Shown: piece after piece, positions 2,150 to 25,375 of the stretch
Numbering within the stretch: position 1 is the stretch's first letter
Layout of the letters: each line of letters starts with the position of its first letter
DNA from: Raillietiella orientalis
Lineage: Eukaryota
NCBI GenBank assembly: GCA_036172245.1
Contig: JAYWIR010000096.1
Coordinates: 186,001-247,657, forward strand
Length of the DNA stretch: 61,657 bases
Direction of reading: 5' to 3'
Notes under the pieces: model-generated
The model's database searches: none
What the model was told of the DNA's origin: nothing
What the model saw: only the letters and a program-made list of their open reading frames with translations
Program-made: the position numbers and the translations under genes

Positions 2150-2354
2150 GCTCCAGGGTGGACGTGTTTTCTCGGTGCTCCTCGTGCCAGGAAGTCTCCC
2201 CAAGTGCAAGCGTCGTGTGGTTCGGTGGTCGATCAGGCTGCGATGCCTGACGCGACCACCAGGGATGGCCAGGGGGCAGCGGCAACGCCGCCCCCAGAGG
2301 CGATGGAGAGCCAGGGGGCGGCGGCAACGTCGCCCCCAGAGGCGATGGAGGTGG
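2150..2354 (+). mobile_element. LINE D3: 5' end and ORF1 start only
   Basis: Near-identical to the D1 5' end (reverse complement of ~23040-23244) and to D4; starts gctccagggtggacgtg; encodes MPDATTRDGQGAAATPPPEAMESQG. Confidence 0.93.
2269..2350 (+). repeat. Two-copy tandem repeat (~42-bp period) in D ORF1 N-terminus (QGAAAT[P/S]PPEAME)
   Basis: ccagggggc(a/g)gcggcaacg(c/t)cgcccccagaggcgatggag occurs twice; also present in D1 (~23045-23126) and D4 (~60631-60712). Confidence 0.9.
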
Positions 2355-2824
2355 ACGTTAAAGTCCCCCGCAATGAGATGGGCCACAGTAGGGTGAGATC
2401 GAAAGAGCCACTGCCCTTGAAGCGTACCGAAAAACTCAATACTTTCGGCCCATCGTCCAGCACCGCTCGGCGCGTACACGTTGGTTACGACAAGGTCGAT
2501 CGAGTCGGACCACTTGAGTACAAGCTGTCCCACTCGGCCTTCCGTGTCGAAACGAACGCTGCGCACCGCTTTCGCCAAAGTTCATCGCACGAGGAAAGCG
2601 ACGCCGCACGTACGTGCAACGCCGCACCTATAAAGTAACGTTCCGCCCGCGCGCCGTTAGATTTCTACAGCCTGCTCTCCGGAGATGCTGTGAATCTCCT
2701 GCAGGAGCGTCAAGTCGAAAGCGCGCAGAGCGTGAGCCACTAGTCGCCTCTTCTCCTCATGTTGGAGCCCGTTGACGTTCCAAGACGTTACGGCAACACG
2801 ACCAGAAGACGCGATTGCCCTCAT
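2355..2824 (-). pseudogene. BC1 ORF2 N-terminal APE endonuclease fragment
   Basis: TGATG stop/start at 2826-2822; VVTNVYAPSG and HLIAGDFNVH in ORF 1946-2578. Confidence 0.88.
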
Positions 2825-3540
2825 CACGGCTGGGAAAGCGAGGCCGTGGTGCTCGCCTCACCCGTCGAGCGGGCAGTAAGCAGCACGAAGGGCTGGAGGG
2901 CGCGGTCGCCACCGGTCTCAACTGTGCTGCACGTAATCGGGTGCTCCTCCCAAGGTGCAGAACCTGTGGGTTCCGGGGTGAGCACTCGCCGTTCCGCGGC
3001 GAGTGTGTCACGCCTCAGGGCTTCAGCCCTGCGGGCGCTCGCTCCCGCGCGAGTAACGCGTCGTTCAGCTGCGTACACGCACTCCTTTGCGGAGTCTGAT
3101 GCTCGCATGATCGACGTGCGCTTGCATCCGTCCGATTGCAACGGAATGGTCTTCTAGGCGGTCACAGAAGCGGACTTGCACGCGTTGAAGGCGCTGGCTT
3201 TTTCCTTGGAAGAGTCACAAGCCGCGCGAGTTCTTGTATTCCCGCGACTGCTTTCTCCTTTGGAAAGGCTCAGGGATGGAGGTTGCGGAGCTTTTTTTGG
3301 AGATTTTTCTTTCCTGCTCTCCACAACCTTCTATTCGCCTTCGCGATTTTCGGAGGCTTCCGCGACAGTAGTTGCGGAAACCTCCGGGATTTCCGCTGCG
3401 TTCTCTGGAGGTGTTGCTTTCGCTACGCCTTTAAAAGGCGGCAATGGAGTCACCTTCTTGACAGTCGGGAGATTGCTCCTCTCCTGCCGTGTCGGTGAAC
3501 TTGCTCCGCGGCTCAAAGTATTGTGCGATTGACAAAGTAA
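2824..3540 (-). pseudogene. BC1 ORF1 C-terminal part (after the A1 insertion)
   Basis: ORF pieces 3331-3516 and 2824-3141 match ORF 39014-39643; ends SLSQP-stop overlapping the ORF2 ATG. Confidence 0.82.
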
Positions 3541-3546
3541 TCAGTT
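3541..3546 (+). promoter_or_regulatory. Initiator-like TCAGTT at the 5' end of family A
   Basis: Conserved at the first bases of all three A copies (3541, 38926 minus, 50867); fits the TCA(G/T)T(C/T) Inr consensus. Function inferred. Confidence 0.45.
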
Positions 3547-3667
3547 AATTGTGCTCGTGTGTACCCGGAGAGGGGAAGTTTTCCAGACGAAACCAACAAT
3601 AAGAAGCGGGGAGGAGATCGCGGCAAAAGACCTGCAGTTGTCCCGTGCAGCAAGACCAGCTGCCAGG

Positions 3668-5427
3668 ATGCAGGCACCTAGAGGAGGAGTGGAGAGACCG
3701 TCGTCCCCCATGGAAGCCATGGAGGTAACGTGCGGCAACGGCGAGGCGGTGGCAGGCATGCCGAGGATCGCGCCCGCGGCGGGCTTTGCTGCGCCGGCGG
3801 CGGCGATGCCAAGGGTCGTACCCACGGCGGCGACGCCGAGGATCGTGCCCGCGGCGGGGAAGGTCGCGCCTGCGGCCGCGATGCAGAGGGTGCCGCCCGC
3901 GGCGGCAACGGTGGCGACGTCGAGGGTTGCGCTCGGAGCGGCGGCGTCCCAGTGTGGACCCGCGGGCATCCACGCGGTTCAGGGCGAGACGCCATCTTGT
4001 TCGGCTGCGGTGGCGCAGCCCTTTTCCTATGCGTCGGTGGCGGCTGGACAAGCGAGTGTCCACCCACCAAGAAAATTCGGGAAGCCGCTATGCGGTAAAG
4101 TCCAAATGGTGGATCGGCCGATCGTGGAGTTAGGGACGAATGTGAAGCCCATCATTTTCAAGATTGGACTGATCAAGTTCAGTAATATTAGGGAGGTGTA
4201 TCTGTCCCTTGATAAAACGGACATGAATTTTGATCGCATACAGGCGATCATACCAGCAAACAACGGGTTCACAGTCTTCACAGACTGTGAAAAGATAAGA
4301 GAGCGATTGATCCATAAGGGGATCAATATACAAAGGAGGATGGTTTGTGGTGTTGGCGAGATGCCATACACAACCGTGTTTCAGTACGGCATCTCCATCC
4401 TCACACCGCAACTAACGGTGTGGAACTTTTTGGAGCAGTATGGGGAAGTTCTGGACCTTGAACTCCAAAACTTCTCTGGAAAAATATTTTCTGGCGACAT
4501 GATCGCCAAAATGAAGTTAAAAGAGGGAGCTGTGATCCCTGGATTAGCCGTTCTTGACGAACAATCCCAGAGAGTGAACGTGCGTTACCGGCAACAGCCG
4601 ATATTCTGCACCGGGTGCAAGCAGTTCGGCCACAGGGCCGGCGCTTGCCCAACGTGTCGTTGTTTCCGCTGCGGCAAAGTAGGACATCAAGTCCGAAACT
4701 GCCGCAGCCGGAGGTGTGCTCCTTCTGCAAGAAACACGGACATGCGAAATCGAGCTGTCCGGAGTTTGCAAACTGCAGAAGGATTCGAGGTCTCTCTCCC
4801 GTGAGAGAGAGAAACACGAAGGGGGCGGAACAGCCTCAGAAGGCAGGAAGGCCGAAGAAGGTGAAAGAAGCAGTCCCGGTATCGAAAGACGGCTTCATAC
4901 ATGTAGGGAAGAAAGGAAACAGGAGGATGCTCGTCAAGGAGCAAGGAACCCCTCTCACCCTACAAGGTGAAGAGCAAGAAGGCGAGAAGATGGAGGTAGC
5001 GCAGGAAGGCGCGGAAGAAGAAATAGGCGAAGCCACTCCGGTGTCGCAGGAGGCCCTGCAATCTACGCAGGAGTTGGCATCACTGGCTAGTGTAGTCCTA
5101 GAGGTGCAGAGCGGTCCCCAGCAAGAGAAAATCTTGCAGAAGATCTGCAATGCACAGGAGAAGGTCAACCAGGTTGTGGAGGTCACCGAGCGCGAAAAGC
5201 TAGAGGAACAGCTTCTCGATGTAAAGGCGAACTTCTGCGCCAAGGTCCAGATAAAGACGCTATCTCGAAAACTGATCGAGCGGGCCGAACACTCGACGGA
5301 GGAGGCGGAAGTAACCGACCTCACCGGAACAGAGAGTGACGCCGGCAGCGAGAAGCCCGCTGCTTCTTCATTGTCTGGAAGAGCACGCTATCTCAGACAG
5401 AAGAAGCTCAGGAAGGCCAAGAAATAG
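3668..5427 (+). pseudogene. A1 ORF1, gag-like zinc-knuckle protein; 1-nt frameshift near 4702
   Basis: CTGCKQFGHRAGAC, CFRCGKVGHQVRNC and CSFCKKHGHAKSSC are split over ORFs 3551-4804 and 4615-5427; uninterrupted in A2 (36954-38801). Confidence 0.9.
3758..3950 (+). repeat. Ala/Pro-rich degenerate tandem repeat in A ORF1
   Basis: MPRIAPAAGFAAPAAAMPRVVPTAATPRIVPAAGKVAPAAAMQRVPPAAA; A2 and A3 carry one extra unit (TTAEVVPAA / TTVEVVPGA). Confidence 0.8.
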
Positions 5428-5440
5428 GTCTTCCCTTTTT

Positions 5441-8400
5441 ATGGCCTCTTCCCTATCGACCGCCAGGAGGCTGAACATCGCCTCCTGGAATGTAAACGGT
5501 ATGGTCGACCAGGGAAAAAGAAGAAGTATTGTGCGGACCATCGCACAACAAGACATAGTGTGCCTGCAGAAGACCCACAAGATGGGTCTCGAGATTAGTC
5601 AGCAAATGGAACGGCGATTCAACGGGCAGATTTTCGTCAGCGAGGGAGAACGGAACACGCAGGGTGTGGCGGTCCTAATCAAGGACAACTTGGCCCCCAC
5701 TATTCTGGAAGTGTTCTGTCCCCAACCCGGACGAATCATCGGCGTGCGACTCGCCTGGTCCGCTACTGTTCACCTCATCCTGGTGAACGTGTGCGGGCCG
5801 CACAGGCTAAAACATCGTTGTGCGGAGGCGCTGCATGCAGCACTCCGTGGAAAGGTTGCTTCAAAGGACGTCGTGATTGTTGCTGGCGATCTCAACATAT
5901 TGGATGAGATCACTCACTCCGAAGACGCCAGAGGAAGGACGCCGTATCGGCGATTATCCGACGAGTTCGGACTGGTGTGGCGAACTGCAAGTCACAAGCC
6001 GATCGATCACGTCCTGCACAGCACCGAACTTGGGAACCGCATCCAGGGGTTTCGCGACACTATGACTACGGTGTCCGATCACCCCCTGGTGCGGTTTTCC
6101 CTAAGAACGGAGAATCCTCGGCGGAGGCAAGGCACCAGGGCAGCGCTCATCAGCATGCCCGCCTGGTTCGAAACCCATCCCGGACATCAGGCTGTCCTGG
6201 AGGCGATTCTGAGGGCAACAACAATCCGAAGAGTCGCCGACTGGGACAGCCTGAAACACAGGATACACCTGTTTGCGAACATGCAGTTCGGGGATAGGCG
6301 CTTGAGGCAAGAGGCGTACCGGGAGCTGAACATCCAAGATCGCTCCCTCTCAAAGTACTTCGATCAGTACGAGAGTCGGTACGTCCTCAATAACATAATA
6401 GGGGAAGTCGGCGTGCTGGAGAAGAGAAATCTGGCAACAGCTATCTTCTGCATCCAGTACGACGGCCAAAAGCGACAGTCGTCTGAGGACATCGTGGATG
6501 CCTTTCACAGGCATTACACGAAACACTTCAGGCGACAACAGCTGTGTCGCTCTAGTCAACAGGCATTCTTGAGCTATCTCGAGAAGAGGACCGACGACCT
6601 CCAGCGGAACAGACTGGAGGAGGAGTTCTCCGAAGAAGAGGTGAAGACTGCGTTTGGGCAACTTCGCAAGGACGTGGCAGCGGGCCCTGACAGTGTACAC
6701 ATCACGCACTATCAGCGGTACCTGCACGCCTACCTGCGCTTGTTCCACCAGTTGACCCTCTGCATCCGGGAAGAAGGCAGACTACCTCAGTCCTTGTACG
6801 AGAGTCGGATGAGATTGCTGCCGAAACGAGGCGACTCTACCCAGATCGCCCAATGGAGGCCAATCTCGATCCTAAACTCCGATGCCAAGTGGTTGGCAAA
6901 GATCTGGTCCAACCGCTTAGGCAAGGTCATGTCGAGGCTGATCTCTCCGGTCCAGACATGTGCAGTCCCAGGACGACACATGTCGGACAATGTCAAATGT
7001 GCCCAGGCCACTGTTGGACTCAGTCGATACGTCGGCGAGAACCTGGTGCTGGTGTTCACTGACATGGAGAAGGCCTTCGACTCCATCGACCATGGGATGC
7101 TGCTGAAGGTTCTGGAGAAGCTAGGGCTTCCGAAACACTTCAGCAACTTCGTGAGGGCGGTACTCCAGAACCAGTACTGCCGGATCAAGATCAACGGCCA
7201 GGAGATGGCAGCAATCAGGATGGAACGAGGAGTCCGACAGGGCGACTCGCTGAGTCCGATGCTGTTCGTCATCTATATGGAGGCGTTGTCGTCCTTTATC
7301 GAGAAGAGCGGACGACTAAGCGGGATTACCATCGATAGCCAGCGTCTTACCCATCTGGCATACGCCGATGATCTACTCTTCTTCATCAAGGGAGAGAAAA
7401 ATCAGCGTGCCTTTCTGGATGTGGTGGACCAGATGGAACAGGGCTTGGGCTTAAAAATATATTCCCAGAAGAGCCAGCTTTTGCCCGACGGAATACTGGA
7501 TCTCTCCACTCTAACGGGTAGTGGATTCCGTACGGTCGACACGGCCAAGTACCTGGGAGTCTACATCGGCGACGGCTCTGCGTCGAAGCTGCTGTGGAAG
7601 GAAATCCTGGGGAAAACGGCCAAAGAAGCAGCCAAGTACACCCGAACGGACCTTGGGATGAAGCGAAAGGCCATCATATGGAACGGAGTACTCCTTCCGA
7701 AAGTGCTCTTCGGGGCGGCCTTCGCGAGGATGAACAAGGACACTACTAGGGAGTTCGACAAGCTGCAAAGAAAAACACTCTGGGGCCACTATCGCCCAAG
7801 AGTAAGACTGAAACCCCTGTGTCGTCCCAGGGAAGAAGGCGGTTCCGGGATAAAGTCGCTTGCACATTCCATGGAAATCATGGATACGCGACACATCCTG
7901 GACATTGCCACTTAGTGGGATGACTGGCCGTATGCGGCGCACGGGGCATACGCGTTGCTGCTTAACAACTCGGAAGGCCTGATGACTGCGCTGCTAGGCA
8001 AAGTAGGGGACTGGATAACAATCGACCCGACCTGGAGGAGGAAGCAACGGCTGGTGCGGAAGCACCAAATCAAGATCGTGCCGCGAAGCAGAAAACTCTG
8101 GCAGGACGAGTCCATCCTGGTGATCCCTTGGTTGCTTCCTGTCCCGCCGGACACGAGAAGCTGGATCTACCAGCGGTCCAGAGTTACCCTACTGCAAATC
8201 CAGGAGTGGAGGCGAGGAGGCTACCTACATCAAACACGTATACTTCGGTATACAGAGATGATGTTAGGAAGGTTTACCCACAGGACCCGCGAAGTGTGGT
8301 TCAACCACAACGACTTCGCATGGTCGAGGGTAACCAGAACAAACCTCCGAAGGCTTATCCAAGAAAACGAACGTGACACCACTGCCCTCCAGGAAGTCAC

Positions 8401-8959
8401 CGAACGCTACGGGAGTGAACGGTTCAACCTGTTAGCGATCGGCACGACGCTCTGGAGGAGTGACCTTCCGCCGGGCACCCAGGATGACCTCCTGATGTTT
8501 TATCACGGAGGAATCCAGAGTGGGTCCCGATTGCAGCACTTCACAGGAAGACGGGAAGACCGAGACTGCGCAGCATGTGGAGACGACGACAAGAGACTTC
8601 ACGTCTTGACGTTTCCCTCACTGCTGCATGTCTGGCTGATCCTGGAAAGGATCATAGGACTTACCAACAAGTCCGTTATGGAGATCCTCGCCGGGATGTT
8701 TCATGGGGATGGTAATGTTCCCTGTTACAATCCCATGGTGAGGACGACCATAGCCCTCTTCATCACCGCCATACTTGTGCGGTGGTGGAAAATGAGGAAA
8801 GCCAGGAGAGTCGCACCACCGATGGAGATCCTACAAGGGCACTTGAAGAGGGAAATCGGCATCAGGAACTGCGGGAAGATCCACTCCTGGACGTACCGAT
8901 TCATCCTGAAGAGGATCCGGGACGACGCCCGGGACCATCCAGCTGGAATTTCCCCCTGA
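5441..8959 (+). pseudogene. A1 ORF2, APE endonuclease-reverse transcriptase; one in-frame TAG at 7913-7915
   Basis: SWNVNG, AGDLN, IDHVL, SDH; WRPISILNSDAK, DMEKAFDSIDH, GVRQGDSLSP, AYADDL, KYLGV; ORFs 5336-7915 and 7955-8959 share a frame; the catalytic QE reads QK in this copy. Confidence 0.94.
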
Positions 8960-9062
8960 AAAGCAGAACACTAGTGCAACCCAAGGACCCCCAAGTGCAA
9001 AATGTTTGTATTGAGTGAATGAGAGTGCGAATGTAAATTTTGTATTTTTGTAGAAAAATAAA

Positions 9063-10339
9063 CTTACCCCACACCTTGTGGGACTTGGGGAAACCTTCCG
9101 ACTCGGCGATGAAGCGACTGCATGCAGCGTGCTTTTGCTCGTCGCGACGCTGCTTTTTACGGCTTTCGTAGCCTTTGCAGTGGGGCCTGCGCTGCAGTGG
9201 CGCTGTCCGGAACTCGGAAGGGACAACGAAACGGGGCAAGAAGTCTTCGCACTGTTGCGATCTTCCTGTTTTCCTACCATTCCCTCCAGGGTGTTACGGA
9301 GATTTCCTGGTTCCTGGCTCGGAGAGGTGCCTGCGAGCTCGGCAGAGAGGGAAGCCATGGCACGCGTCAAACCCTCGCGCCCCTTTTTAATTGTCTTCCC
9401 CGCCGTGACTTTCCCCTTTCGGGGCGTTGCGGGCGGGGATGCTTTCTTTTGATCCGCGGATCGCTCGTAGTTTTTTGCGAGTTTTTGCGGACGACGTTTT
9501 TTATTTGCTGCTGCGGCTTTTCGTGCAGTGGTCTCTTGAACCCGACGAATTTCCACTGCGGCTCTTTTTCTTGCAGGTACCGGGCACTTTTTGATTTCGT
9601 GCCCGGAATCTTTGCAATAGCGGCATCTTGGAGAGGGGCACTCTTTAATTCGGTGCCCCTCCTTGCCGCACTGCTCGCACGCACGAGTCTGGCCTATGAA
9701 CCACAGGTGAACGACCGTGCCGTTCAATTGCAGCTGCTCAGGCACAACACGCCTGTTCGCGACGGTGATCCGCGCGGAGGCTTGTCCAATGTGGACAGAG
9801 GGGAAATCCTTTAAAGGATTTGGCCTCCTACACAGTGCGTGCACGGTGGCGAACTTCGCCAGCACACTTGCGACATCGCGGTCGGAGATTTCCGGTTCGA
9901 TGTCGCACAATTGAACGACAAAAGAGTCGTCCATCGCGGTAGGTAGGACTTCCTTGCCATTGATGGTCAACGGCGTATGGAGAAGGCGCTGCACAAGTGC
10001 TGCGTTCTTGCACCGAATCTTCGTATATTCCATCCTGCCAGCAGGCATTATGGCAAGGAGTTCCTCCTCGCGAACGCCTATCCGGACGAGCTCATCATTG
10101 AGCTCACGACCGATTCTCCCGTTAAGTGGCCCACTGACCTTATAACGGAATGCAGGCATGTATCCTGATGACACATATGCCTGGAACTTCGCATCGCAGG
10201 TTCCTGGTCTTTGGGAGGTAACGGCGGCGTAACTCCTCACCGGAGGCAAGGAAACCATTACGGAGGATGCGGCCACTTCAAGTGCAGCTGAAGTGCACCC
10301 AGTGGCTTGCTCCTTCACACTATCCTGTGTACTAGCCAT
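9063..10339 (-). pseudogene. BC1 ORF1 N-terminal part (two CCHC knuckles), interrupted by A1
   Basis: CEQCGKEGHRIKEC and CRYCKDSGHEIKKC in ORF 8831-10339; the last ~75 codons of that ORF are read-through into antisense A1. Confidence 0.9.
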
Positions 10340-10459
10340 GTTGCACTATGCTACTTGGCAGGTTGCACAGGAACACACAAGTGCGAGCAAAAACGCAGGC
10401 ACAAAGTTGCCCGATCGTTGGCACGGATAGACGCGGAAACACGTCTGCACTGTACGAGC

Positions 10460-11192
10460 GCAAGAGATCGAACGGATCACGGGTGGGCGGCTGTTGTGGC
10501 GTTGCGGCACCGCGAAATCAAGCGGTGTCTTCTTCCTTCTTCGGCCAGCAATCGAGACCGCAATAAAGGACGTTCGGTACGATGACGCTGGTCGCGTCGG
10601 TCAGCTGACTCTCAGCTGGTCCGACTCTATCGTCCTGGTCGTCAGTAACCTATACGCTCCTAGCGGAAACGCTGCGTTGAGGGCGAAGGCAAGAAGGGAG
10701 TTCTACCTTGCCGTGAGACGCGATTGGCTGACCGATGCAGGAGTTCGCAAAGTGCACCTGATCGCAGGTGATTACAACCTGCGCCTGCTTTCAGGTGCGC
10801 CGGATACACTGAACGACCGCGTCAACGAGTTTTGCGCAGAAATAAACACGCTCAACTTGTTGGCCGGGGACACGGCCATTGAAAGCAGCATCGATCACGT
10901 GTACCTTGATCAGCACCTATGCTCTCGGGTGGGCAAGCGCGGCAAGGTGCCATCCGAGCTGTCGGACCATGGTCGGATCATGTTCGAAGTCCGTCCGCGC
11001 GACAAGGGCCCCCCTCGCCAGCGTGGCGTCTGCCAGGGGACTGGCTGAAGTTTCCCGCCGCGGCGGAGCACCTCCGCGCGTATATTCGGAGCTTCAGGAT
11101 GCAGACACTTCCGGACTGGGACCGCTGCAAGTGGTCGGTTTAGGAGTTCTGCGACCGGTTCCCTTTGCATCGCCTACCTACGGGATTTGGGG
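10460..11192 (+). mobile_element. Host LINE H: APE endonuclease fragment between BC1 and G1
   Basis: AQEIERITGGRLLWRCG, NLYAPSG, IAGDYN, SIDHVYL, SDH, ending PLHRLPTGFG. Confidence 0.88.
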
Positions 11193-11408
11193 TTTCCACC
11201 CGGGTTCGCTCGGGGCGTCTATTGTATGAAACTCTACAAGAAAACGTGGTACAAGGCCCCACTAACGGCCACACAACACCGGATTTGCCGGGACGCCGGG
11301 ACGCAGCCCGGCGTGACGCTCCTCGGCAGTGGAGGGGGATAGGGATCAAAACAAAAAGAAAAATAAAGATAAGGAAAACAAAAAAGAGTTTGGAGGGAGG
11401 GGAAGGGA

Positions 11409-14400
11409 TCACGTTCCACTTAGAGGAGGGTCCATCCTTCGTAGGATGCCCTCTAGGTCCATCTTCATCTTTACCAGATGGGGCCGTCTCGCTGCTCTCC
11501 GCATGAAGCAGACCGCATACGGGATTACATCCCTCACGTTGGCATCCACTCCTTCGTCGCGAATGTCGCTCCATGCCGCCACGATGCCCCGGATGCAGCA
11601 GAGGGCTGCGATGGCTGCGGCGGGCTGCAGGGCGTCCCGCACGAAGAGGGGCCGAAGAACGTCTCTGGGCGCGCTGCCCGCTGGGAGCCCGAAGGTCGTC
11701 CGGAACCGTTCCCACAGGGGTCGGAGGGCAGCACAGTCAACTAGTAGGTGGGAGAGCGATTCCCCCTCCCCACACCTGGCACACTCAGGCCTTACACTCC
11801 CCCGCGTCCATTGGAAGCGGCGCGCGTTGCAGGGTAGACCCCAGTGCAACAGTAGCAGCGCCGACTCTTGCCACTTAAAAGGGAGAAGCCTGGATCCGAT
11901 TAATATTGGGGGCCACTTCAGGTCATCCGTCGGGATGCCGAGCAGCTCGCCCCATCGACGAAGTCCACGAGGGAGGGCACTCGGGGTTGTGACATCTGCC
12001 AGTTCTCCCATGGTCCAACCGCTCATCTTCTTCTCCTTGCCTGCGATTCGGCAGGAGACTTGCCACTTTGGCTTGCAACCGCTGGTTAAAGCCCTCCGGA
12101 AGAAGGGCAGATTTGAAGCTAGAGGGATGGTCTCCGCCCACGTGCTCCTGGCGAGACACTCCAAAGTTGTCCGCAGTGTGCAGCGGGCGTTGGGGCCGAA
12201 TCGCAGGCGGTTCTATTCCGGGGAGGTCTGGAAGTTCAGCTTGGCCCACGTCGCAACTGATTCCTTTAGCCAGGCGGAGGAGTTGGCGAAGCTGCATACC
12301 GTCCAGCCGCTGGCTTTGACCAGGGTTTCCATGCGCCCAAGAAGAAGGCCGCATCTTCTCACCTTCCTGCCGGAGCACAGAAGGTACGACGCGAGTCCTT
12401 GCGTCCTGGACACACGGCTCGCAAGGATTCGGGCCGGAACGCACCAAGGGGTGCTCCATGACTTTGCTGCGATGGCGAGGGTGCGCCATCGCAGCTCTAT
12501 TTCCAGGCGCTCCAGCGTCAGGAGACCGAGACCGCCGTCCCGACGAGGAGCGCATAAATCATCCAGAGGCACACGTGGCCTCCCGCTGCCCCAGAGGGCG
12601 ATGCGGAGTAGGTCCTTTGTCCTCTTTTTAATGTTACGGGGGACGGGGCACACAAAAAGCAGGGGGCGGAGGATGCGAGCCGCGAACGCGTTCCACACCG
12701 TGGCCCGTTCCAGCAGAAGGAACTTGCCTTCCAGGAACGGGCCGATTGCCAACTCTACCTTTTGGAGACGACCTGATCAGGCTTCTGCGAGGCAGAATTC
12801 CCCCAAAGGAGCACCCAGGTACATTAGGCACCTGGCCGCTGAAATCCCCAAGCGGAACCATTAAGGCCGTCCGACTCACGTCGCACCAACCGGAACCACA
12901 GACGACTTCGCCTTGTTTACCTGCAATCCTGTCCCACGGCTGAGCAGATCGAAGAAATCCTCCGCTGCGGCTGCCTGGGAGGACATAAGCAACATCAGCA
13001 GAAGATCGTCGGCGTATGCTGCAACGGCGGGCGTGCCGGGGCACGAGCTGGGCAGGGCAGCCAAAGTCACCCTGTACGCTCTCAGCACCAGCACAAAGTA
13101 GGTGCTGAAGAGCAGGGGAATGAGGCTATCGCCCTGCCGTATGCCCCGCCGCACCGTCACGCCGTACACCTGTTGGCTGGAAAAAACGATGTTTTCAATG
13201 GCATTGCGCCAGCATGAGCGCAGGTAGGAGAGAAGGGAGGGTGGGAAGCCCATGCGACCCAGGAGCTCCAAAAGTAGCTCCTGGTCTACGCAGTCGAACG
13301 CCTTGTGGAGATCGACCGCGATCGCTAGGGCTCTCTTCCCAGCCCGGGTATCCATTTCCAGCCCAGCTGGCGGTCCCAAAGTGGGGTTGCCAATCTTTCC
13401 CCCTGTGTCGTTCAGGCAGCGCTGCACATGGAACCATGTACTTGCGAAGAAGAGGTTGGCATCCATACTTCGCCCGGAAACAGCGTACGTCTGCTCCGGG
13501 CTAATTATTGAGTCTGCCACCTGTCCTAGACGCGAAGCTCACAGTCCAGCGACCAGCTTGGCGTCCGTATTCACAATTGTAATCGGACGCCAGTTGCCTA
13601 GGGATCTCAGATCTCCTCCCTTCGGGAGGAGCCTCACACGGGCTGACCGAAACCAGGCGGGAACTTCGCCTTCGTCTCGGATCAGCCCGGTCAACTGGAG
13701 CACCAGGGGGGCCAGCTCTGTCGCGAAGCATCCAAAAAATTCTGCAGGCAGGCCATCCTTCCCTACCGCCTGACGCCTCTTAATTCTTTTAATACCGGCG
13801 AGAATTTCACCGGTAGAAAAAGGCTCGTCGAGGCTGATCCTCTCCTCCTCCCCTATTGCCTGGCCTCCGTCCGGAAGCAGGAGCCGCGAGGCGTCCTGCT
13901 CTGGGGGTGCTTTAGTGTCGAGGGAGGAATAATACTGCCGCACGATGTGCCTGATCGCGGGCTGGGCCGATCGCTCCCGGCTCTGGTCGTCCAGCAAGCT
14001 GGCCGAACCGGATTGGCGCTCGGCCCTGGCCCGATATTCGGCCAGGCGACGGACACTGGGTGTCCTCTCGTACCGGCGGGCGTGTAAATAGGCCCTATGG
14101 TTCCGAGCCCCCTCCCCAAATCCAAGGGGCAGGCGGTGCAGGGAAAACTCCTCGCAGAACTCGCGGACCGAGGCCTTGAAGAGGTCCCAATCTTTGAGAC
14201 TGCGGAGGGTGACGCCTCTCAGGAATTCGCGAAGGTGTTCCTTCGCACCTGAGAGCCGCGTCCAGTCCCCAGGCAACCGCCACGCCCTGGCCGGGGTCCT
14301 TTATCGCGCGGGTATACCTCGGCGATTAACCTGGAATGTTCCGACAGCGTCGACGCAACTTTTCCCCGTTTGCCGACCCGCAAGCACAGGTCGACATCCA

Positions 14401-14995
14401 GGAAGAAGTGGTCGATGCTGCGGTCCATTCCCTCCGCGTCCGCCAACAAGTTGGGCGTGCGCATGGCAGCGCACAACTCGTTGGCTGTGCGTTCTTGTGC
14501 TTCGGGATAACCTGACAGCAGACGGAGATTGAAGTCTCCAGCTATCAGGTGTGCCTTCCGCACATTCATGTCGGCCAGCCAATCGCGCTTCAGGGTTTCC
14601 AGCAGCCTGGTACGGTCGCGGTACCACTGTTTGCCGCTGGGGCGATACACGTTTGTGACGATTAGTTCGATCGAGCCGGACCAGCTGAGAATCAGCTGAC
14701 CGATCCGACCGTCGTCATCAAACCGCACGCCCTTTACGGCAGCGTCGATGGCCGGCTTCACGAAGAACGCGACCCCGCAGGTGTTGCGGAGGCCGCACCG
14801 CCAATACAACCGACCCTCCGCGATCGTCTCGATCTCCTGGGCGTCTGCCGCGGTGATCACGTGGATCTCCTGCAGCAGGGCCAGGTCGAGCTCACGCAGG
14901 GTGTCGGCCGTATCTCGCCTGTTACCGTCGTCGCGCAGCCCGTCGACGTTCCAACAGGCGGCGCGAATCCGACGGCGACTGGCGAGCCAAGGTGT
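11409..14995 (-). pseudogene. G1 ORF2 (APE-RT-CCHC), several frameshifts and stops
   Basis: Collinear ORFs 14219-14860 (AGDFN, SIDH), 13539-14276 (WRPITIVN), 12876-13520 (DLHKAFD, QGD, YADD), 12213-12752 and 11409-12164 (CARC..H..C). Confidence 0.92.
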
Positions 14996-16741
14996 TATTC
15001 CTGGGAAGATGGCGATGCGGCGTCCGCCACCTGTTGGGGCGGGACGCTAGGTGGAGGAGGAGGGTCAGGCGCTGCGGGCACCTGGTCCCCCTCCTCCATG
15101 GGTAACGGCGCGTCGAGCGGGTCACCCTTAGGTGGGGTCGCGCCTTCCTGTTGGCCCTCCTCCATGGGGGCGGGCTGTTCAGGCTCGGCGACTGCAGGGA
15201 GGAATTCGTCCCCCTGCTCACCCTCCTCCATGGGGGTGGCCGGCTCGACGGCTTCCGAGCGTGGGAGTTCCCCCTCCGGGATTCCTACGCTACCGCTACC
15301 TTCCTGCTTCTCCTCTTCGCTGGTGGAGGGGAGGCGCCTCCTGGGTTTCTGGGACTTGCGTCCCGACTTCCTGGAGGGTGCTTCCGAGGAGGAGGATGCA
15401 CTTCCGGCCCCCAGGTCCGACTCACCTGTGGGGGCCGTTTTCGCGGGAGCCGGCCTTCGCACGGCCTTGCGTGAGGGGTTCTCACGCTCCGCCAGCGTGG
15501 CCGCGAGCTCCTCCGCCGCGTTTGTGAACGCGGCGTCCTCGGTGTCGACCGGCGCGTCGCGCGGCTCACCCTCTGTTTGCACAGAGTGTTCGCCGTCGCG
15601 AACTTCGGGCGCGACGGAAACGGCGAGGGGAGGCTCGTCGCCCCGGGTGGCCTCTTCCGGAACGATGGTACGTTCCAGTGCCACCGTGCACTCGCGTAAG
15701 GTTTTCGAACGCTGCCCGGGTTTTTTTGCCTTGCCGGCCGGCTTCTCTTTCTTCTCCTTTAAAGGAGATTTTTTCTCTTTTCTGCCTGCTACAAGTTGCC
15801 AGCCATCTTCACCTTCCGCCTCTTGGGAAGGTTTACCCTCCGTCTTTTCTTTTGGAGGTTGAGGATCTGGCAGTTTCAGCCGGCCAGCGTCCGCCTTAGG
15901 TCTTGCGACCTTTAGTGCGCGTTTCCCCTGCGCCTTTTCGCGGCAGGAGGAACCGGGGTGGGGCGTTTTGGGCACACACGTCGGACGTGGCCCTTCTCCC
16001 CGCACATGTGGCATTGGATGTTAGGACACCTCTTGCGAAGGTGTCCTACGGTATCGCAGTAGCCGCAATACCGGGGCTTTCCCACGTACCAGAGGTCCAC
16101 GCTCTCTTGCGCGACCTCCAGCTTGTGGGGAAGCCCACAATCCTTACTCACGGTTACCCGCGCTTCAGCCTGACCTCCGAAATGGCTATTGAAGCCTTCA
16201 AAGATTGTTGGCTTAGGCCACAGCGCGTGCACCTCGCCGAACTTCCGAAGTTCTTGTGCTACCGCAGAGCGAGTCATACGGCTCGTTATTCCAGTGAGAT
16301 GGACCACCACGGAGCGGTCCATCGTCACCGGCAAGATCTTGCGGCCGTCGAAGTTCAACGGGATGGTGATCAGAGTCTGAACCAAGGTGATCTCCTTGCA
16401 CACCACCTCGACTCGCTGACCTCCGCTGAGAACGTACAAACCGTCAAGACCTTGTTCTCTAGCTCCGGCATTTTGCAGAGCTTTCGAAAACGCGCGTGCC
16501 GTTTTCCGTCAAATAAGGGGCCTACCTGGTACACCAAGCTGGACTTGTACCCAGCTGCCCGGTAGGCCGCCATCTCGGCCACGGTTTCCGCGCTCGCCGC
16601 GGCCACCATGGCCCTCCAGCTCCTCGCCTTGGACGGCGAGGGCGATTCCGGGGCGGACGCCCCTGATTCGGTAGGCTGTGGGGGTGGGCAAGCCTCCCCC
16701 ACACCTACCTCCATCGTGGTGTCCTCAGGCATCGCTTCCAT
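14995..16741 (-). pseudogene. G1 ORF1 zinc-knuckle protein, frameshifted
   Basis: ORF pieces 16370-16774, 15912-16439 and 14995-16014; ends SSQE-stop. Confidence 0.88.
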
Positions 16742-16833
16742 CGGACACCAACGATGTTCCACACCAAACAACAATAGAAAAAACCTCTTCCTGTCGACTC
16801 ACTCGGGAGCGAAGGAAAAACACGTCCACTCGC

Positions 16834-17673
16834 CAAGGGCTTCGGTGAGGGTGTCAGGAAAGAGCGGGCGTACCTCTAGGCGCGCCTTTATTCACGGCGT
16901 CCCGACGTCCGTCGCCTGGCTGAATTCAAGGCTGAGGCGGAGAGGCACGCCTGGCAGTCAGGCTCGGCCAGCCTGCTGGATCATCAGGGCCAAGAACGCT
17001 CCAGCCTAGCCCAGGTAAACCGCATCGTGCGGGAGTTTTATTCCTCCTTGTACGTGCCACTAACACCTGAGCGCCATTTCGCGCAACGCCTGCTGCCGGA
17101 TGGTGCTCCCGCGCTCAAGGAGGAGGACCGTTCCAGATTGGCGGAACCGTTCACGATGGCGGAGATCATCTCCGCCATCAACAGGCTCAAGAAAAAGAAG
17201 GCACCAGGGGAGGACGGCCTGCCCCCGGAGTTTTACCATCGCTTCGCGCCAGAGCTGGCCCCCCTGGTGCTCAGGTTAAGTGCGCTAATTCGCAAACACG
17301 GCGAAGTTCCCGCCTCGTTCCGGTCAGCTAAAGTACGTCTCCTGCCGAAGTCAGGAGACTTACGCAACATTGGCAACTGGCGTCCCATCACAGTAGTGAA
17401 TGCGGACGCAAAGTTGTATGCCAAGTTCTGATCTGAGCGTTTGGGGCGGGTGGCCGCTTCCGTGGTGAGTCCCGAGCAGACCTATGCTGTTCCCGGACGA
17501 ACCATGGAGGCCAACCTGCTCCTCGCCAGCTCATGGTGGCAGTTGCGACAACGCGTTGCACAGGACGGTCAAGGGAGCCTCGCGCCCCCCTCTGACCAAG
17601 AAGATCGGGCAGAGGGTGAGATGGACTCGGCGGGAGCCTTTGCCGTCGCGGTCGATTTGCACAAAGCATTCGA
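16834..17673 (+). mobile_element. Host LINE E, part 1: ORF2 linker to RT motif AVDLHKAFD
   Basis: GFGEGVRKERAYL, KAPGEDGLPPEFY, WRPITVVNADAK, AVAVDLHKAFD, then an abrupt switch to the D1 3' end. Confidence 0.9.
17659..17673 (+). repeat. 15-bp target site duplication of D1, left copy (GCACAAAGCATTCGA)
   Basis: Identical 15-mer at 23245-23259 on the other side of D1. Confidence 0.95.
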
Positions 17674-17704
17674 TTTTCACCCGGATTTCGCCGGGGCGTT
17701 TATT
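17674..17704 (-). terminator. Conserved 3'-terminal AATAAA plus CCCGG/CCGGG hairpin (representative of 11 occurrences)
   Basis: Also at 86-111(-), 11193-11223(-), 25335-25364(+), 25779-25807(+), 28345-28375(-), 43539-43568(+), 45675-45700(+), 46383-46412(-), 57891-57919(-) and 60536-60554(+, truncated). Confidence 0.8.
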
Positions 17705-17893
17705 GTAAAATAAACTTTTACAAAGACGTGCAATGCCTGGACCATTGCTCCAGCCACGCACGAAGAAACACAGAGCCTGCCATGTCACCGTTTCGCAGAC
17801 CGGTACGGTCCACCACGGCAGCAGGGTGAAGGAAGAAAAACAAAAAAAACAAAACAAAAAAGAAAAGAAAAGTTGGGAGGGTAAGGGAAGGGA

Positions 17894-20800
17894 TCACAGT
17901 TGCTGGTGGGGCCGTTGCATCCCTTGCAGGATGCCGGCAAGCTCCTTCTGTATTCCTGGATCCAGGTGGGGCCATAAAGACGCCCTCCTCAGAAACTTGG
18001 AGGCTCGCTGGATGGCACCCTGGTCGCGTTGTCCTCCCGTAGCTTTGCTCCAAGCGGTGACGATCCCGCGTAGGCAGCACAAAGCTGCTAACGAGGCCGC
18101 TGGCCGAAGGGCGTCGGCAACGAAGAGGGCTTTCAGTGCGTCCCTGGGGTTGCCGCAGGGGATTCCGATGGCCGCGGCAAAGCGAAACCAAAGGGGCCGA
18201 AGGGCAACACAATCCACTAGCAGGTGGGGGAGGGACTCCCGTTCCGCACACCTGACGCAATTGGGGTCCACCGCTCTCCACGTCCAGTGGTGTCGGCAGG
18301 CGTTGCAGGGGAGTCCCCAGTGCTGCAACAGGAGAGCCGACTCCTGCCATTTCAAGGGGAGGGCGGAAGTGTTCATGAGAACCGGGGACCACTTCAGATG
18401 TTCAATGGGAACATCGAGCAGCGCGCCCCAGCGCAGAAGTCCATTGGGAGGCGTACTCGGGGTCGCAGCATCTGTAAACTGTCCCGTCTTCCACTCTCCT
18501 ATCTTCTTCTCCTTTCCGGAGATTGTTACTGTAACCACCCACTTCGCCGCAACATCGCTGTCCAGATGTTTTATCAGGGAGGGCAGCGCAGCAGCAAAGG
18601 GGGTTCTTCCTGCCCACGCTCTCTTCTTTGGATCCTCCAGGATCTCGCGGAGCGTGCAACTTCTGTAACCCCCAAACAGGAACCTTCGTTCCTGTTGGGA
18701 GCGTTGCATGCTGAACTGTAACCACGTTCGAACGGTTTCCTGCAACCAGGCACTACCGTTAAACGGGCGACAGGTGAGCACTCCTAGGATTTTCCGATAC
18801 AGCGCAGCCACCCTCCGTAGCTGGAGTCCGCATCGGTTGACGCGGCGACGGAGTGCAAGAAACGACGTCAGTCCCGACTTGCCGGTGGCTTGCTGGAGAA
18901 GGAGACGTGCAGGGACGCACCAACAGGTGCACCACAACTCTGGAACGAGTGCCGACAAGCGGAACTGGAGCTGAAGCTCCAGCCGCTCCAGCGGCAGGAG
19001 GCCCAGACCACCATCCCGACGAGGAGGGCACAAGTCCTTTAAGCGGACTCGGGCCCTCCCGTTGCCCCAAAGGGCGATACGGAGGAGGTCCTTTGTCCGC
19101 TTTTTAATTCTCTCTGTGGAGGGGCAAACAAAAAGCAGGCGGCGGAGGAGAGGAGCCGCGAACGTGTTCCAAACCGCGGCCCGTTCAGGCAGGAAAAACC
19201 TGCCGCCTCGGAATGGACCGATCGCCGTCTCTACTTTTTGAAGGCTGCCGGACCACGCTTCCGCAGGGAAGTAGTCCCTCAACGGCACACCAAGGTACTT
19301 GAAGTACCTCACCGTGGGGATCCCCAAACGGACCCAGTCCTGCTGCCCTGCCCACGCCGCACCAACTGGAACCACGGATGACTTCGCCCTGTTCACCGTA
19401 AGTCCGGTTCCCCGATGCAGCAGGTCGAAGAACTTCTCTACCGCCGCAGCCGGGGTGGACATAGGGAGCAGCAGCAGAAGGTCGTCCGCGTATGCCGAAA
19501 CGGCCGGCGTACCAGCACAGTCGTGCGGCAGGTGCGCCAGAGTTCCCCTGTACGCTCTCAGTACCAACTCAAAGTAGGTACTGAAGAGCAAGGGGCTCAG
19601 GCTGTCTCCCTGCCGGTTCCCACGCCGCACCGGCACGCCGTGCACCGTCTGCCCGCTGAAAGTAACATTGATGAGCAAGTGGCGCGAGCAGGAGCGCAGA
19701 TAGGCCACTAATAAGGCCGGGAAGCCCAAGCGTTCTAGAAGCTCCAGAAGCAGATTCTGGTCGACGCAATCGAATGCTTTCTGCAAGTCCATTGCGACCG
19801 CAAGGGTTCCCTCCACCACCCGACCATTTAACCTTTTGCCGGCGCACGCACCGGAATTCCGGCAGCGCACCAAGCTCCTTTCATGTTGGAGCTCTAGCCA
19901 GGTGGAAGCCTGAAACAGGTTCGCCTCCATGCTTCGCCCGGGAACAGCATATGTCTGTTGCGGGCTGATGAAGATGTTGGCAACCCGTCCCAGACGCTCT
20001 GCCCAAACCTTGACCACCAACTTGGCGTCCGCATTCACTATTGTGATGGGACGCCAGTTGTTCATACTCCTCAGATCTCCTCCCTTAGGGAGAAGCCGCA
20101 CCTTTGCCGAACGAAACGAGGCGGGAACGTCACCTGTTTCGCGTATCAGCAAGGTGAGTTGCTGTACCAGGGGGGTAAGCTCAGCCGCGAAAGTTTGATA
20201 AAACTCCGCGGGCAAGCCGTCCTCCCCTGGAGCCTTTCGCCTCTTGAGCTTTCCGATGGCCAAGAGGATCTCGTCCATCGTGAAAGGCTCGTCGAGGGTC
20301 TATCTCTGCTCCTCCCCGATCGCTGGAGTGCCTTCCGGAAGCAGGAGTCGTGAGACGTTCCTCTCCGTAGGTGCCCTGGCATACAGGGAGGAGTAGTAAC
20401 TCCGCATCAGGCCGCGGATTTGGGAAGGTGCCGATTGCTCCTGGCCCTGATCGTCCAGTAAGCTGGCCGATCCGGACTGCCAGGCTTGCCTCTCGGCTCC
20501 CGCTTTGTATTCCGCCAGCCTGCGGATGTCGGCGGTGCTGGCGTAACGACGGGCCTGCAGGTAGGCTCGTTCGTTACGGACCCCGGTCCCAAAACCCGTA
20601 GGTAGGCGGTGCAGAGGAAACTGGTCGCAGAACTCCTGGACCGACCGCTTGAAGCGGTCCCAATCCTGGAGTGTCCGCAGACTGAAGCTCCGTATGAACG
20701 TACGGAGATGTTCCGCCGCGTCCGGGAGCTTCAGCCAGTCCCCTGGGAGACGCCACGCTGACGAGGGAGGGCCCATGTCGCGCGGATGGATCTCGAGGAC

Positions 20801-21475
20801 TAGCGGGCGATGGTCGGACAGCTCGCACGGTAACTTGCCGCGCCTGCCCACGCGAGGGCACAGGTGCTCGTCAAGAAACACGTGGTCAATGCTGTCTTCC
20901 ATCCCCGGTGCACTGGCCAACAGATTACAGGTGTGCACCGCCATGAACACTTCGTTGACCAGGTCACGCTCGGGATTCTGCTCATCTGGTTTCAGGCGAA
21001 AGTTGAAATCGCCTGCAACCAGATGGGCATTCCGCACGCCTGCTTCGGTCAGCCAGTCTCGCCGGAGGGCAAGGAAAAACTCTTTCCTCTCCCTCCTGTT
21101 CATCAGGTGCTTGCCGCTCGGTGCGTACACGTTCGTGACGATCAGATCGATCGAGTCGGACCACCTGAGAGTCAGCTGGCCGACACGACCGTGATCGTCG
21201 AACCGCACGCCCCGAGCCGCGGCCTCGACGGCTGGCCGAAGCAGGTAGGCGACACCGCAACTTTTCGCTCTCCCACACCTGTACCATAGCTGCTCTCCGG
21301 AGATCCATTCGATCTCTTGCGGTTGTTCTGCAGAGATCACGTGGATCTCCTGCAGCAGCGCAAGGTCGTAGGACTCCAGAAGGGCGGCCATGTCTCGTCT
21401 CCTGCCGGCGTCTGTCATGCCGTTCACGTTCCAAACGGCGATGCGCAGACGACGGCGGGAGGAGATTCCCGGCAT
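17894..21475 (-). pseudogene. D1 ORF2 APE-RT-CCHC (~1190 codons); one in-frame TAG at 20300-20302
   Basis: WNVNG, LLQEIH, NVYAP, AGDFN, SIDH, SDH; DLQKAFD, QGDSLSP, AYADDLL, KYLGV; CVRCAERESLPHLLVDC. Confidence 0.95.
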
Positions 21476-23151
21476 TACTGCTGGGAAGATTGAGGTGTGG
21501 GGGAGCCCTCCTCTTGCGAGGCGGGCGGGATGTCCATGGGGGTTTCGGCCTTCTCAGACACCTGAGGCACCTGTTCGGCCTCCACCCCCTCCATCCCCTC
21601 CGTGTCCGTGCGTGGGAGTCTCTCGGGCGACAGGTCCCGAGAGTTTCCCACGCTCATGGCACCCTCGCTTGCGGAGGCCATCTCTTCCCCTTCGACGGGG
21701 AAGACGAGCTTCCTTGGCTTTGTGGACTTACGTCCAGCCTTCTTGCGCGGTGCCGTAGAAACGGAGGCTGCGCTTCCGGCCTCCACCTCGGGGTCGGAAG
21801 TGGGGGACTCCTGAGGGGAGGCCGGACGCCTTACGGCCTTCTTGCCAGCCTTGGAGGGTTCTGGCTGCAACGAGGCTGCCAGCTCCTCCGCGGCTCGCGC
21901 GAAGGCTACGTCATCGATGGTGGTGTCGGTGACGGACGCCGCCGCCCGCTCGCTTCCCTCGCTGTTGACTGTGTCAACAGAGGGGAGGTCGTCGGTAGCG
22001 GCGAGTTCTTTCCGGCAGCGTTCGGCAACATCGAGAACGCGTTCGACAACGACGCTGCACTCTTTAATTATCGCGCTAACCTGCTCTTTCTTCTTCTGTT
22101 GGTAGGCGATTTTCTTTTCCATCCTCCTCTCCTTCTTTGATTTTTTGGCTGTTGCCACTTGCCACTCAGTCTCCTGGCCGGCTCCCTCAACTTTTTCGGC
22201 GTTGGTCGCCGGAGTCTCGGGTGCGGCCTGGGTCTTGGGCGCGGGTGGCACAGCCTTCGCGGCAGCTTTCGCCGCCAGTCTTTTCTGCAGAAGCCGGGCG
22301 CGTTTTTTAAGGTTTCTCTTGGAAACCACCCGCACTGCTGCTTTTGGGCACACCTCCCTCGTGTGGCCCATTGTGCCGCATACTTGGCACTTCACATTGG
22401 GACACCTCTTTTTGAGGTGGCCCGACGTATTGCAGAAGCCACAGTATTTCGGCTTCCCCACATACCAGAGGTCGACGGTTTCGCCTTCGACCACCAGTTT
22501 GTGGGGAAGAGTGCAGCCCTCCCGAACGGTCACGCGCTCAGCAGTGAGGCCGTGTTGCAGCCTCGTGTAGTCCTCGAAAGGACTAACTTTCGTCCACTGC
22601 GCGTGGAACGTTCCAAACTGTTCCAAAGCGGCGCGAACCTGTTCTTTGCGCATTCGCGCGGTCACGCCTAACAGGTGGACCACCATGCTGCGGTCTGCCG
22701 TAGTGAGGAGAACCCTGCGCGTCCCCATCACAACGGGGGTTTTAAGCAGTCGTTGGGCCAGCTCTGCATGTTTGCAGATGACCTCAACATACTGACCCCC
22801 GCTGCGGATTGTCATAGCGCTGAGCTCCTCCTCTTTCACATCGAGAGCGCGCGTGCTCTTCGAGAAGGCGCGCGCGCTCTCTCAAGAATATAAATTGCCT
22901 ACCTTGTAGAACAGTGAGGGGTTGTACCCCTACTCTACATAGGCCGACAATTCCGCCGCGGCTGCAGGCGATGGCGCCGACACAACGGCGCTCCACGCCC
23001 GCGCTGCAGCGGGGACCGATTCTGTGGGGGCGGATGCCCTCACCTCCATCGCCTCTGGGGGCGACGTTGCCGCCGCCCCCTGGCTCTCCATCGCCTCTGG
23101 GGGCGGCGTTGCCGCTGCCCCCTGGCCATCCCTGGTGGTCGCGTCAGGCAT
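21475..23151 (-). pseudogene. D1 ORF1 zinc-knuckle protein; one in-frame TAG at 22930-22932
   Basis: CGFCNTSGHLKKRC and CQVCGTMGHTREVC; TAATG stop/start overlap with ORF2. Confidence 0.92.
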
Positions 23152-25364: not shown

Positions 25365-25375
25365 CGCGGATCACC

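Follow-up and report, generated by a model that had tools for sequence, protein, structure and literature searches.

The window analyzed here, 61,657 nt of Raillietiella orientalis DNA (contig JAYWIR010000096.1, 186,001-247,657), holds three copies each of two families of long interspersed nuclear elements (LINEs), which we call A and BC, and in every case the A copy lies on the opposite strand inside the first open reading frame (ORF1) of a BC copy. The repeat structure was derived from self-BLAST, pairwise BLAST and a three-way alignment of copies 1, 2 and 3; elements were mapped in the window with tblastn and motif scans, and domains were assigned with Pfam. The GC content of the window is ~0.52-0.64. 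According to the tblastn map, it consists almost wholly of retrotransposons without long terminal repeats (non-LTR), and every mapped element sits within another LINE, a nesting of the kind known from Zepp (see below). An Rfam scan of the window returned no family at or above the gathering score. Its BLAST profile reveals one large repeat in three copies: 2349-11190 matches 40118-31259 at 90.2% identity, 2349-10495 matches 49690-57890 at 83.0%, and 31963-41388 matches 57881-48422 at 85.0%, followed by 41503-43744 against 48407-46207 at 80.3%. Each copy of the large repeat is a BC LINE enclosing an A LINE.

Family A is ~5.5 kb long, and all three copies are full length. Copy 1 (3541-9062, + strand) has ORF1 at ~3551-5313, with one frameshift near 4730-4770, and ORF2 at 5315-8959 (+), which encodes an apurinic/apyrimidinic endonuclease (APE) domain, a reverse transcriptase (RT) and a C-terminal region and contains one premature stop (7913-7915). 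ORF2 of copy 2 (33388-38926, - strand) has five premature stops and two frameshifting indels. Copy 3 (50867-56457, + strand) is the most decayed, with nine premature stops and three frameshifts in ORF2 and a 41-nt insertion in the region of the 5' untranslated region (UTR). Pfam matches of A ORF2 are Exo_endo_phos (APE, 1.1e-12) and RVT_1 (2.5e-34); the zf-CCHC match of ORF1, at 19.8 bits, falls just under the 20.8 cut-off, but its translation shows three CX2CX4HX4C motifs. Among PDB sequences, human L1 ORF2p matches A ORF2 best (2.2e-50), against 5.6e-27 for R2. Judged by the APE and RT of ORF2, the knuckles of ORF1 and this L1-group best match, A is an APE-type non-LTR retrotransposon and L1-like. 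A ORF2 is 27-30% identical to the ORF2 of BC and D-type elements (tblastn), and the BC, D, G and H types of the window are 46-66% identical among themselves. No close relative of A ORF2 was found among 5.8 billion proteins (best match 25-26% identity) or in metagenome contigs (eight loci at 25-33% identity).

BC has a zf-CCHC knuckle in ORF1 (22.8 bits against the 20.8 cut-off) and RVT_1 in ORF2 (5e-17), and the N-terminus of its ORF2 is 52% identical to the APE of the D element, which itself scores Exo_endo_phos at 2.5e-14. Every copy is split by A. In copy 1 (- strand), the 5' part (9063-10458) comprises the 5' UTR and ORF1 codons 1-425 from an ATG at 10339 and ends at the A 3' junction; beyond A (2354-3540), the copy resumes with the final ~69 codons of ORF1, which are followed by a spacer and by ORF2 codons 1 to ~131 (APE). 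This copy is broken at 2349-2353 within the APE (~codon 131), head-on with a 205-nt D-type 5' end (2149-2353, +). The break is a rearrangement or assembly junction rather than a retrotransposition end, and the remainder of the copy is not present in the window. Copy 2 (+ strand) has its 5' UTR and ORF1 codons 1-425 at 31992-33387 and, at 38927-43568, the ORF1 tail, an ORF2 open over 39727-41793 and then broken, and the 3' terminus ...AATAAACGCCCCGTCGTGACCGGGTGAGAA; its entire composite with A (31992-43568) measures 11,577 bp. Copy 3 (- strand) carries the 5' UTR and codons 1-425 with two stops at 56458-57853, and the ORF1 tail, a decayed ORF2 and the 3' terminus at 46383-50866.

All three BC copies have themselves landed in a LINE. 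The host of copy 1 (G1; 10459-11193, +) is the APE region, from codon ~45 on, of a D-like LINE antisense to BC; the host of copy 2 (D') is represented by its 3' part (28346-31991, -), 92.7% identical to the intact D element at the flank, and continues at 43569-44684; the host of copy 3 (J) comprises D-like APE codons ~2-50 (46222-46382, +) and 35 nt more (57854-57888), which lie between the 5' end of BC copy 3 and the 3' end of another LINE, G3. The three BC 5' ends (CTCG(t/c)ACAGTGCAGACGTG...) come directly after one 20-nt host sequence, GATCCGTTCGATCTCTTGCG, located at 10459-10478 (-), 31972-31991 (+) and 57854-57873 (-) for copies 1, 2 and 3, respectively. Its complementary strand carries the 'QEIE(R/W)I' codons of the D-like APE domain. 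Both readable BC 3' ends (2/2, copies 2 and 3) adjoin the same host position, and an approximate 10-bp duplication surrounds BC (ATCTCCTGCG / ATCTCCCGGG in copy 2 and ATCTCTTGCG / ATCTCCTATG in copy 3). The site is uninterrupted in the intact D element (21302-21321) and in element H (~14800-14830), and the homologous APE site of BC itself has 8/20 mismatches to the BC target. The BC copies are 81-95% alike and their hosts 63-72% alike. Each BC copy arose by a retrotransposition of its own and lies antisense at the one site in the APE region of a different D-like LINE. The earlier note, made from the DNA letters of the window, had claimed as much in speaking of independent insertions into three different hosts; the hosts do differ, but they are homologous D-like LINEs with BC at one and the same site in each, a point that had escaped the note.

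These comparisons make it highly improbable that the three composites were produced by DNA-level copying of one locus, be it segmental duplication or homogenizing gene conversion in a repeat-rich region. Such a process might be suspected from the presence of three copies within 55 kb of a dense repeat nest, and the mosaic similarity blocks described below indicate that some recombination or conversion has happened. However, the inserts resemble each other much more closely than the host flanks do (94.5% vs 71.9% identity for copies 1 and 2, 80.7% vs 62.8% for copies 2 and 3), similarity begins and ends at the BC termini, with target duplications, and the divergence carries a signature of selection. 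Uninterrupted D-like copies also cross the site: besides D in the window, a contig from the one public run with related sequence (X1, in which 0.21 of the sampled words were found, as short contigs; no RNA data set was listed) connects 31998 to 43590 with four letters between and represents a D-like copy without the composite. Because the host flanks have diverged, and because D, H and the X1 contig read through the BC site, segmental duplication is excluded, in agreement with the earlier note, which had argued against a simple one.

Within BC, A is antisense in 3/3 copies and occupies the same position within 2 nt, as seen in junction reads and motif scans, so that both its coordinates and its recurrence at one site in BC ORF1 are as first described. 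The position follows ORF1 codon ~425 and leaves ~69 codons beyond A; the stop that ends this tail is at the same position in copies 1 and 3, and copy 2 lacks a stop at that codon. Motif scans and tblastn place 3/3 A copies in BC and find A in 3/3 BC copies; in the window they detected no empty BC site, no A outside BC and no further copy of either family. In the same window, A and its target motif are absent from the five ORF1 copies of other families (D, D', D'', H and I; 0/5). One X1 contig spans the BC / A 3' junction (33049-33399 plus 33522-33652). The summed contig depth in X1 is 43-106 over most of A and 11-34 over BC, but depth is not copy number and was not counted as evidence; likewise, an X1 contig skipping 32752-39631 was disregarded, as it has only 29 nt on one side and its ends mismatch the A boundaries.

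In BC orientation, all three copies pass from ...CCCACAAG(g/a)(t/g/a)GTGG(g/a)(g/a)TAA(g/a)TTT into ATTTTTC... at the upstream junction and from ...CACAAT(t/g/c)AACTGATTA into BC at the downstream one. Since TAA or TAAA stands at both ends of A, its boundary can be placed only to within 3-4 nt, and a target duplication, if there is one, cannot exceed that length, consistent with the few shared AT bases and absence of a clear long duplication noted before. The A 3' junction recreates the upstream half of the target (...TTT^A). The A 5' junction differs among all three copies over 2-5 nt; two adjacent differences between copies 1 and 2 fall exactly there, and copy 3 has 2 extra nt. The junction peptides quoted in the earlier note are found in the translations. 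Its claim that removal of A rejoins BC ORF1 in frame holds for copies 1 and 2 if one TTA is kept and fails for copy 3, which is in frame only with a different cut. We rejected in-frame rejoining as a sign of function, since it hinges on a boundary choice of 1-3 nt and copy 3 needs the other cut. Splicing of A out of BC RNA, prompted by GTAAGT at the BC / A 3' junction of copy 1, was also considered and rejected; copy 3 has ATAAAT at this position.

Two readings of this arrangement had been offered, a hyperparasite specific to BC and a composite with two RTs. We favor the former, with a probability of roughly 0.68: A, as an autonomous L1-like LINE, appears to home to a single short stretch of BC ORF1, close to its 3' end. 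The alternative is a stable composite of ~11.6 kb, in which A entered a BC master once and the unit was then copied by the BC machinery into D-like hosts; on this view, it would be transcribed from the BC 5' end, and later recombination would have replaced the A 3' half in one copy. We consider this unlikely. It fits the presence of A at the same junctions in all three BC copies, as well as the complete BC 5' ends at the BC target site in all three. On such an RNA, however, the A ORFs would be antisense, unselected passengers, yet the ratio of nonsynonymous to synonymous divergence (omega; Nei-Gojobori estimates on the three-way alignment, with bootstrap intervals in parentheses) is 0.13-0.46 for A ORFs in all pairs, indicating purifying selection. 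The excess of third-position changes reported for A ORF1 of copy 3 is also present, with 50, 44 and 91, and 44, 41 and 85, differences at the first, second and third codon positions.

The earlier note had proposed such ratios for BC as well, and pairwise they are as follows for the pooled BC coding sequence (ORF1 upstream and downstream of A plus the ORF2 N-terminus): 0.46 (0.37-0.58) between copies 1 and 3, at a synonymous divergence (dS) of 0.43; 0.52 (0.41-0.65) between copies 2 and 3, at dS 0.41; and 0.78 (0.54-1.23) between copies 1 and 2, at dS 0.075. For this last pair, omega is 0.46 (0.32-0.66) in the A 5' half, at dS 0.081, and 0.19 (0.15-0.25) in the A 3' half, at dS 0.323. Its differences by codon position are 39, 34 and 39 in BC, which looks neutral, and 28, 37 and 58 in the A 5' half, which is enriched at third positions (p = 0.003 to 0.017). 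The composite would hardly function in cis with BC ORF1 split, yet BC omega is ~0.46-0.52 on its long branch; because ORF1 is split and ORF2 lies 5.5 kb downstream, the composite is mechanistically strained. BC ORF1 upstream of A has an omega of 0.46 (0.35-0.62) for copy 3 against copies 1 and 2, and the 69 ORF1 codons downstream of A have 0.48 (0.25-0.91) between copies 1 and 3. Selection on both sides of A is what one would predict for active BC lineages whose ORF1 was uninterrupted.

Synonymous divergence also argues against copying of BC and A as a unit. Between copies 2 and 3, dS is 0.46 in BC ORF1 upstream, 0.18 in the A 3' part, 0.33 in the A 5' part, 0.53 in BC ORF1 downstream and 0.20 in BC ORF2, i.e. 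it changes stepwise at both A/BC junctions. Sites private to copies 1, 2 and 3 number 26/41/277 in BC upstream of A, 204/85/137 in the 3' 2.7 kb of A, 68/53/321 in its 5' 2.9 kb and 39/35/170 in BC downstream. The site-pattern counts of the A 3' 2.7 kb differ from those of BC (chi-square p = 1e-47), and the history switches at two points, one no more than ~10 nt from where the A 3' end meets BC and the other near 6400. The composite reading further leaves the unlike 2-5 nt at the A 5' junctions to be accounted for, and BC copy 2 has more private changes than the A 5' half that it encloses (57 in 1860 nt of BC coding sequence vs 44 in 2661 nt; p = 0.002). For copy 1, private changes in BC and the A 5' half showed no difference (p = 0.85).

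The 3' 2.7 kb of A copy 1 (~6400-9062), with a quite different 3' UTR, stem from another A lineage than its 5' half, and therefore A lineages recombine or re-prime at occupied sites. Changes private to copy 1 in the A 3' half are distributed 38/31/104 over the codon positions, and AT>GC changes are at least as frequent as GC>AT. Such a pattern reflects selection on an A lineage that was active, rather than decay.

A further alternative is a mixed history, in which a site-specific A entered the lineage of copy 3 and that of copies 1 and 2 separately, copies 1 and 2 derive from one BC::A composite copied once as a unit, and the 3' 2.7 kb of copy 1 were later overwritten by an A transcript that primed anew at the junction already occupied. 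It would explain why the distances between copies 1 and 2 are equal in BC and the A 5' half, why the mosaic boundaries fall exactly at the A 3' junction and near 6400, and why the upstream half of the target reappears at the A 3' junction. We nevertheless regard it as improbable: it requires an 11.6-kb read-through retrotransposition, and it is at odds with the third-position enrichment between copies 1 and 2 in the A 5' half and with the two adjacent differences between these copies exactly at the A 5' junction.

Several observations weigh against homing. Occupancy is complete (3/3 BC copies), and the window, with n = 3, offers neither an empty BC site nor a BC-free A. BC and the A 5' half agree in their relative branch lengths (p = 0.12), synonymous divergence between copies 1 and 2 is equal in the two (0.075 vs 0.081), and the copies rank alike in decay (1/5/9 premature stops in A ORF2 and 0/1/2 in BC ORF1 for copies 1, 2 and 3); all three of these points are also in line with the composite. 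The selection signal in the 69 downstream BC codons is weak, with omega at 0.53 (0.25-1.05) between copies 2 and 3. As a control, transitions and transversions were compared and stand at ~1:1. GC content at third codon positions of A (0.65-0.69) exceeds that at second positions (0.41-0.45), so third-position changes are inflated by GC>AT decay, and after allowing for this the signal between copies 1 and 2 in the A 5' half weakens to p = 0.017. Finally, the mosaic of the A 3' half could stem from gene conversion or from re-priming at an occupied site. Full occupancy, congruence, equal dS and shared decay rank would, however, also be expected if A enters each BC soon after it lands, with master copies succeeding one another. 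Because A is under selection, the history of its 3' part is incongruent with BC and dS steps at the junctions, targeted insertion of A is favored over co-copying; on this reading, the three A insertions would have been independent events. The autonomous behavior of the BC and D-type elements of the window, which insert on their own at fixed sites, is a further point against the composite.

Homing of A might proceed as follows. The A endonuclease would nick the BC sense strand at what is probably 5'-GTAA(G/A)TTT^A-3'; the first nick is placed on this strand because it runs continuous with the antisense 3' end of A. The exposed T-run would then prime reverse transcription on the 3' end of A RNA (...GAAAAAUAAA). 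Pairing between a T-run and the RNA end is as in target-primed reverse transcription of the L1 type. Second-strand cleavage 0-4 nt away would complete a full-length A copy antisense to BC, with a duplication of no more than 3-4 nt (TAA/TAAA). The last ~70 codons of BC ORF1 would be cut off and ORF1 would be moved 5.5 kb from ORF2, disabling the BC copy. By analogy with R1, TRAS and Tx1, target specificity most likely resides in the APE domain of A; alternatively, read-through 3' RNA may pair with the target.

Homing of A also gains support from the BC and D-type elements of the window, which clearly insert at specific sites of other LINEs. The intact D element (17675-23245, -), whose own APE target site for BC is unoccupied and whose RT has human L1 ORF2p as its best PDB match (1.4e-30), lies antisense in G1 at the RT 'HKAFD' codons, with the duplication CACAAAGCATTCGA. 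D-type elements are found antisense at these RT motif-A codons ('VDLHKAFD') in three diverged G-type hosts (G1, K and G2). The insertion site is GTCGATyTsCACAArGCrTTCGAT^, and the junctions with the hosts lie at 17663-17675, 28334-28346, 23245-23260 and 2134-2149. The 3' junctions (G1b to D, 17674/17675; K to D', 28345/28346) read GTCGAT(t/c)T(g/c)CACAA(a/g)GC(a/g)TTCGAT followed by TTTCACCCGG..., the 5' junctions (D to G1c, 23245/23246; D''' to G2, 2148/2149) continue with CACAA(a/g)GC(a/g)TTCGAC, and the target duplication is 14-15 bp (CACAA(A/G)GC(A/G)TTCGA). D and D' are 93.9% identical and their hosts 67.0%; for D and D''', the values are 97.6% and 72.7%. Near-matching sites in H (13293-13304), BC copy 2 (41347-41358) and G3 (59794-59805) are unoccupied, and the RT site of D itself reads CAGAAAGC or CGAAAAGC, not CACAAAGC. 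Within G1, the 'GFG' codons of the APE region are the site of element H (~11194-16841, -). All insertions with a readable host are antisense to it, except G1 adjoining a G3-like piece. As both BC and D-type elements sit at fixed sites in diverged hosts, site-specific insertion of LINEs into LINEs is the rule in this window.

Several further features of these elements deserve mention. The G3-like piece of 434 bp (25376-25809, in host I) and G3 (57889-60489, in host J) both end ~35 nt upstream of the BC site, and in copy 3 G3 and BC stand head-to-tail, separated by 35 nt of host (57854-57888). A conserved 3' terminus of the form AATAAACGCCCCGnCG(4-8 nt)CCGGGTGAnAA, which contains a short hairpin-like inverted repeat and lacks poly(A), is common to the D, BC, G and H types; ~12-20 nt from the 5' end, these types also have the motif G(T/C)(G/A)GACGTG(T/C)TT in common. 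The shared 3' ends are located at ~70-111, 11194-11223, 17675-17704, 28346-28375, 46383-46412 and 57889-57919 on the - strand, and at 25335-25375, 25779-25809, 43539-43568 and 45675-45703 on the + strand. A 42-bp unit is repeated twice in the D-type 5' UTR at all three D 5' ends (2268-2350, 23044-23126 and 60631-60713). D'' (from 60555, +) starts ~45 nt further in than the other D 5' ends do, immediately next to a truncated LINE 3' end (60536-60554). The arms of D' are unequal in their likeness to intact D (92.7% at 28346-31991, the ORF2 side, and 76.7% at 43569-44340, the ORF1 side), which suggests from sequence comparison that D' carries a different ORF1 module and may be a mosaic LINE. Outside the window, one protein on a 2.9-kb public contig, which offers no usable context, is 69% identical to the D-type RT; all other matches are at most 39% identical, over short or partial stretches, and the D-type family therefore seems rare in public data. 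Nesting levels alternate in orientation, so that for every BC copy A and the outermost D-like host point the same way, and read-through from that host could in principle give sense A transcripts.

Several known systems resemble this arrangement in part. LINEs of the Tx1 clade home to transposons: in the portion of Kojima 2015 considered here (PMC4494074), Tx1 inserts into Tx1D (piggyBac) of Xenopus, Tx1-Mar into Mariner-N4_AMi, Tx1-9_AMi into Harbinger, and Tx1-8_Crp and Tx1-4_AMi into LTR retrotransposons. As that portion describes them, they are APE-type, L1-related LINEs at one position and in one orientation of a multicopy transposon, and they also form composite-looking loci, in which tandem or neighboring insertions sandwich target duplications. 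The targets it lists are DNA transposons, LTR elements, small RNA genes and microsatellites, whereas the target of A is LINE coding sequence, and here at least three levels are nested, all of them antisense: A in BC, BC in D-like elements and D in G-like ones. A, BC and D are set beside Tx1 here by insertion behavior; the best solved relative of A ORF2 and of the D RT is human L1 ORF2p, and the nearest named database matches are unannotated fish LINE proteins at ~30% identity.

The Zepp and ZeppL elements of green algae (PMC8226300, PMC3446292) are L1-type LINEs that share with our window the insertion of LINEs into pre-existing LINE copies and the GC-rich nested clusters that result. On the evidence of the parts of these two papers drawn on here, Zepp targets its own copies and its arrays consist mostly of 3' ends, whereas here distinct families occupy fixed sites of another family and insertions are mostly long or full length, antisense and terminated by ...CCGGGTGAnAA without poly(A). 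Self-targeting arrays of 5'-truncated poly(A) 3' ends, in the form in which these parts present them, were not found in the window. R1 and R2 in 28S ribosomal DNA and TRAS and SART in telomeric repeats (on such elements, see PMC1919474 and PMC7265360) resemble A in strict site specificity, fixed orientation and high occupancy of a renewable multicopy target; in their case, the specificity is carried by the element's endonuclease. Their targets, however, are genes or repeats kept by the cell, whereas that of A is a selfish element that must itself transpose to supply sites.

The earlier note had called either of its readings unusual. This is only partly so, as LINEs homing to transposons (Tx1) and LINE nesting (Zepp) are already published. 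In a literature search whose scope excluded subscription journals and Repbase Reports, none of the papers retrieved describes a LINE that targets a fixed coding site of a second LINE or a multi-level network of such families. Tentatively, and at somewhat less than even odds, the window may be seen as a guild of LINE families living on one another, each homing antisense to a fixed coding site of another: A to the tail of BC ORF1, BC and G-type elements to the 'QEIE(R/W)I' codons of the D-like APE, and D-type elements to the 'HKAFD' codons of RT motif A. Each insertion would disable its host, and each family would escape its own kind through a diverged copy of the target in its own sequence.

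If true, this would amount to a multi-level arms race of parasites upon parasites among retrotransposons. Site-specific LINEs are usually explained as seeking 'safe havens' in multicopy genes of the host. A LINE whose only haven is the coding sequence of an active LINE, itself homing in turn to a third, would make transposons each other's niche and enemy. Because the target sites are codons of conserved catalytic motifs, target and targeting enzyme can co-evolve in one protein family. The families of the window would then provide naturally diverged APE endonucleases with distinct targets of ~15-20 bp, and so bear on how L1-type endonucleases gain specificity.

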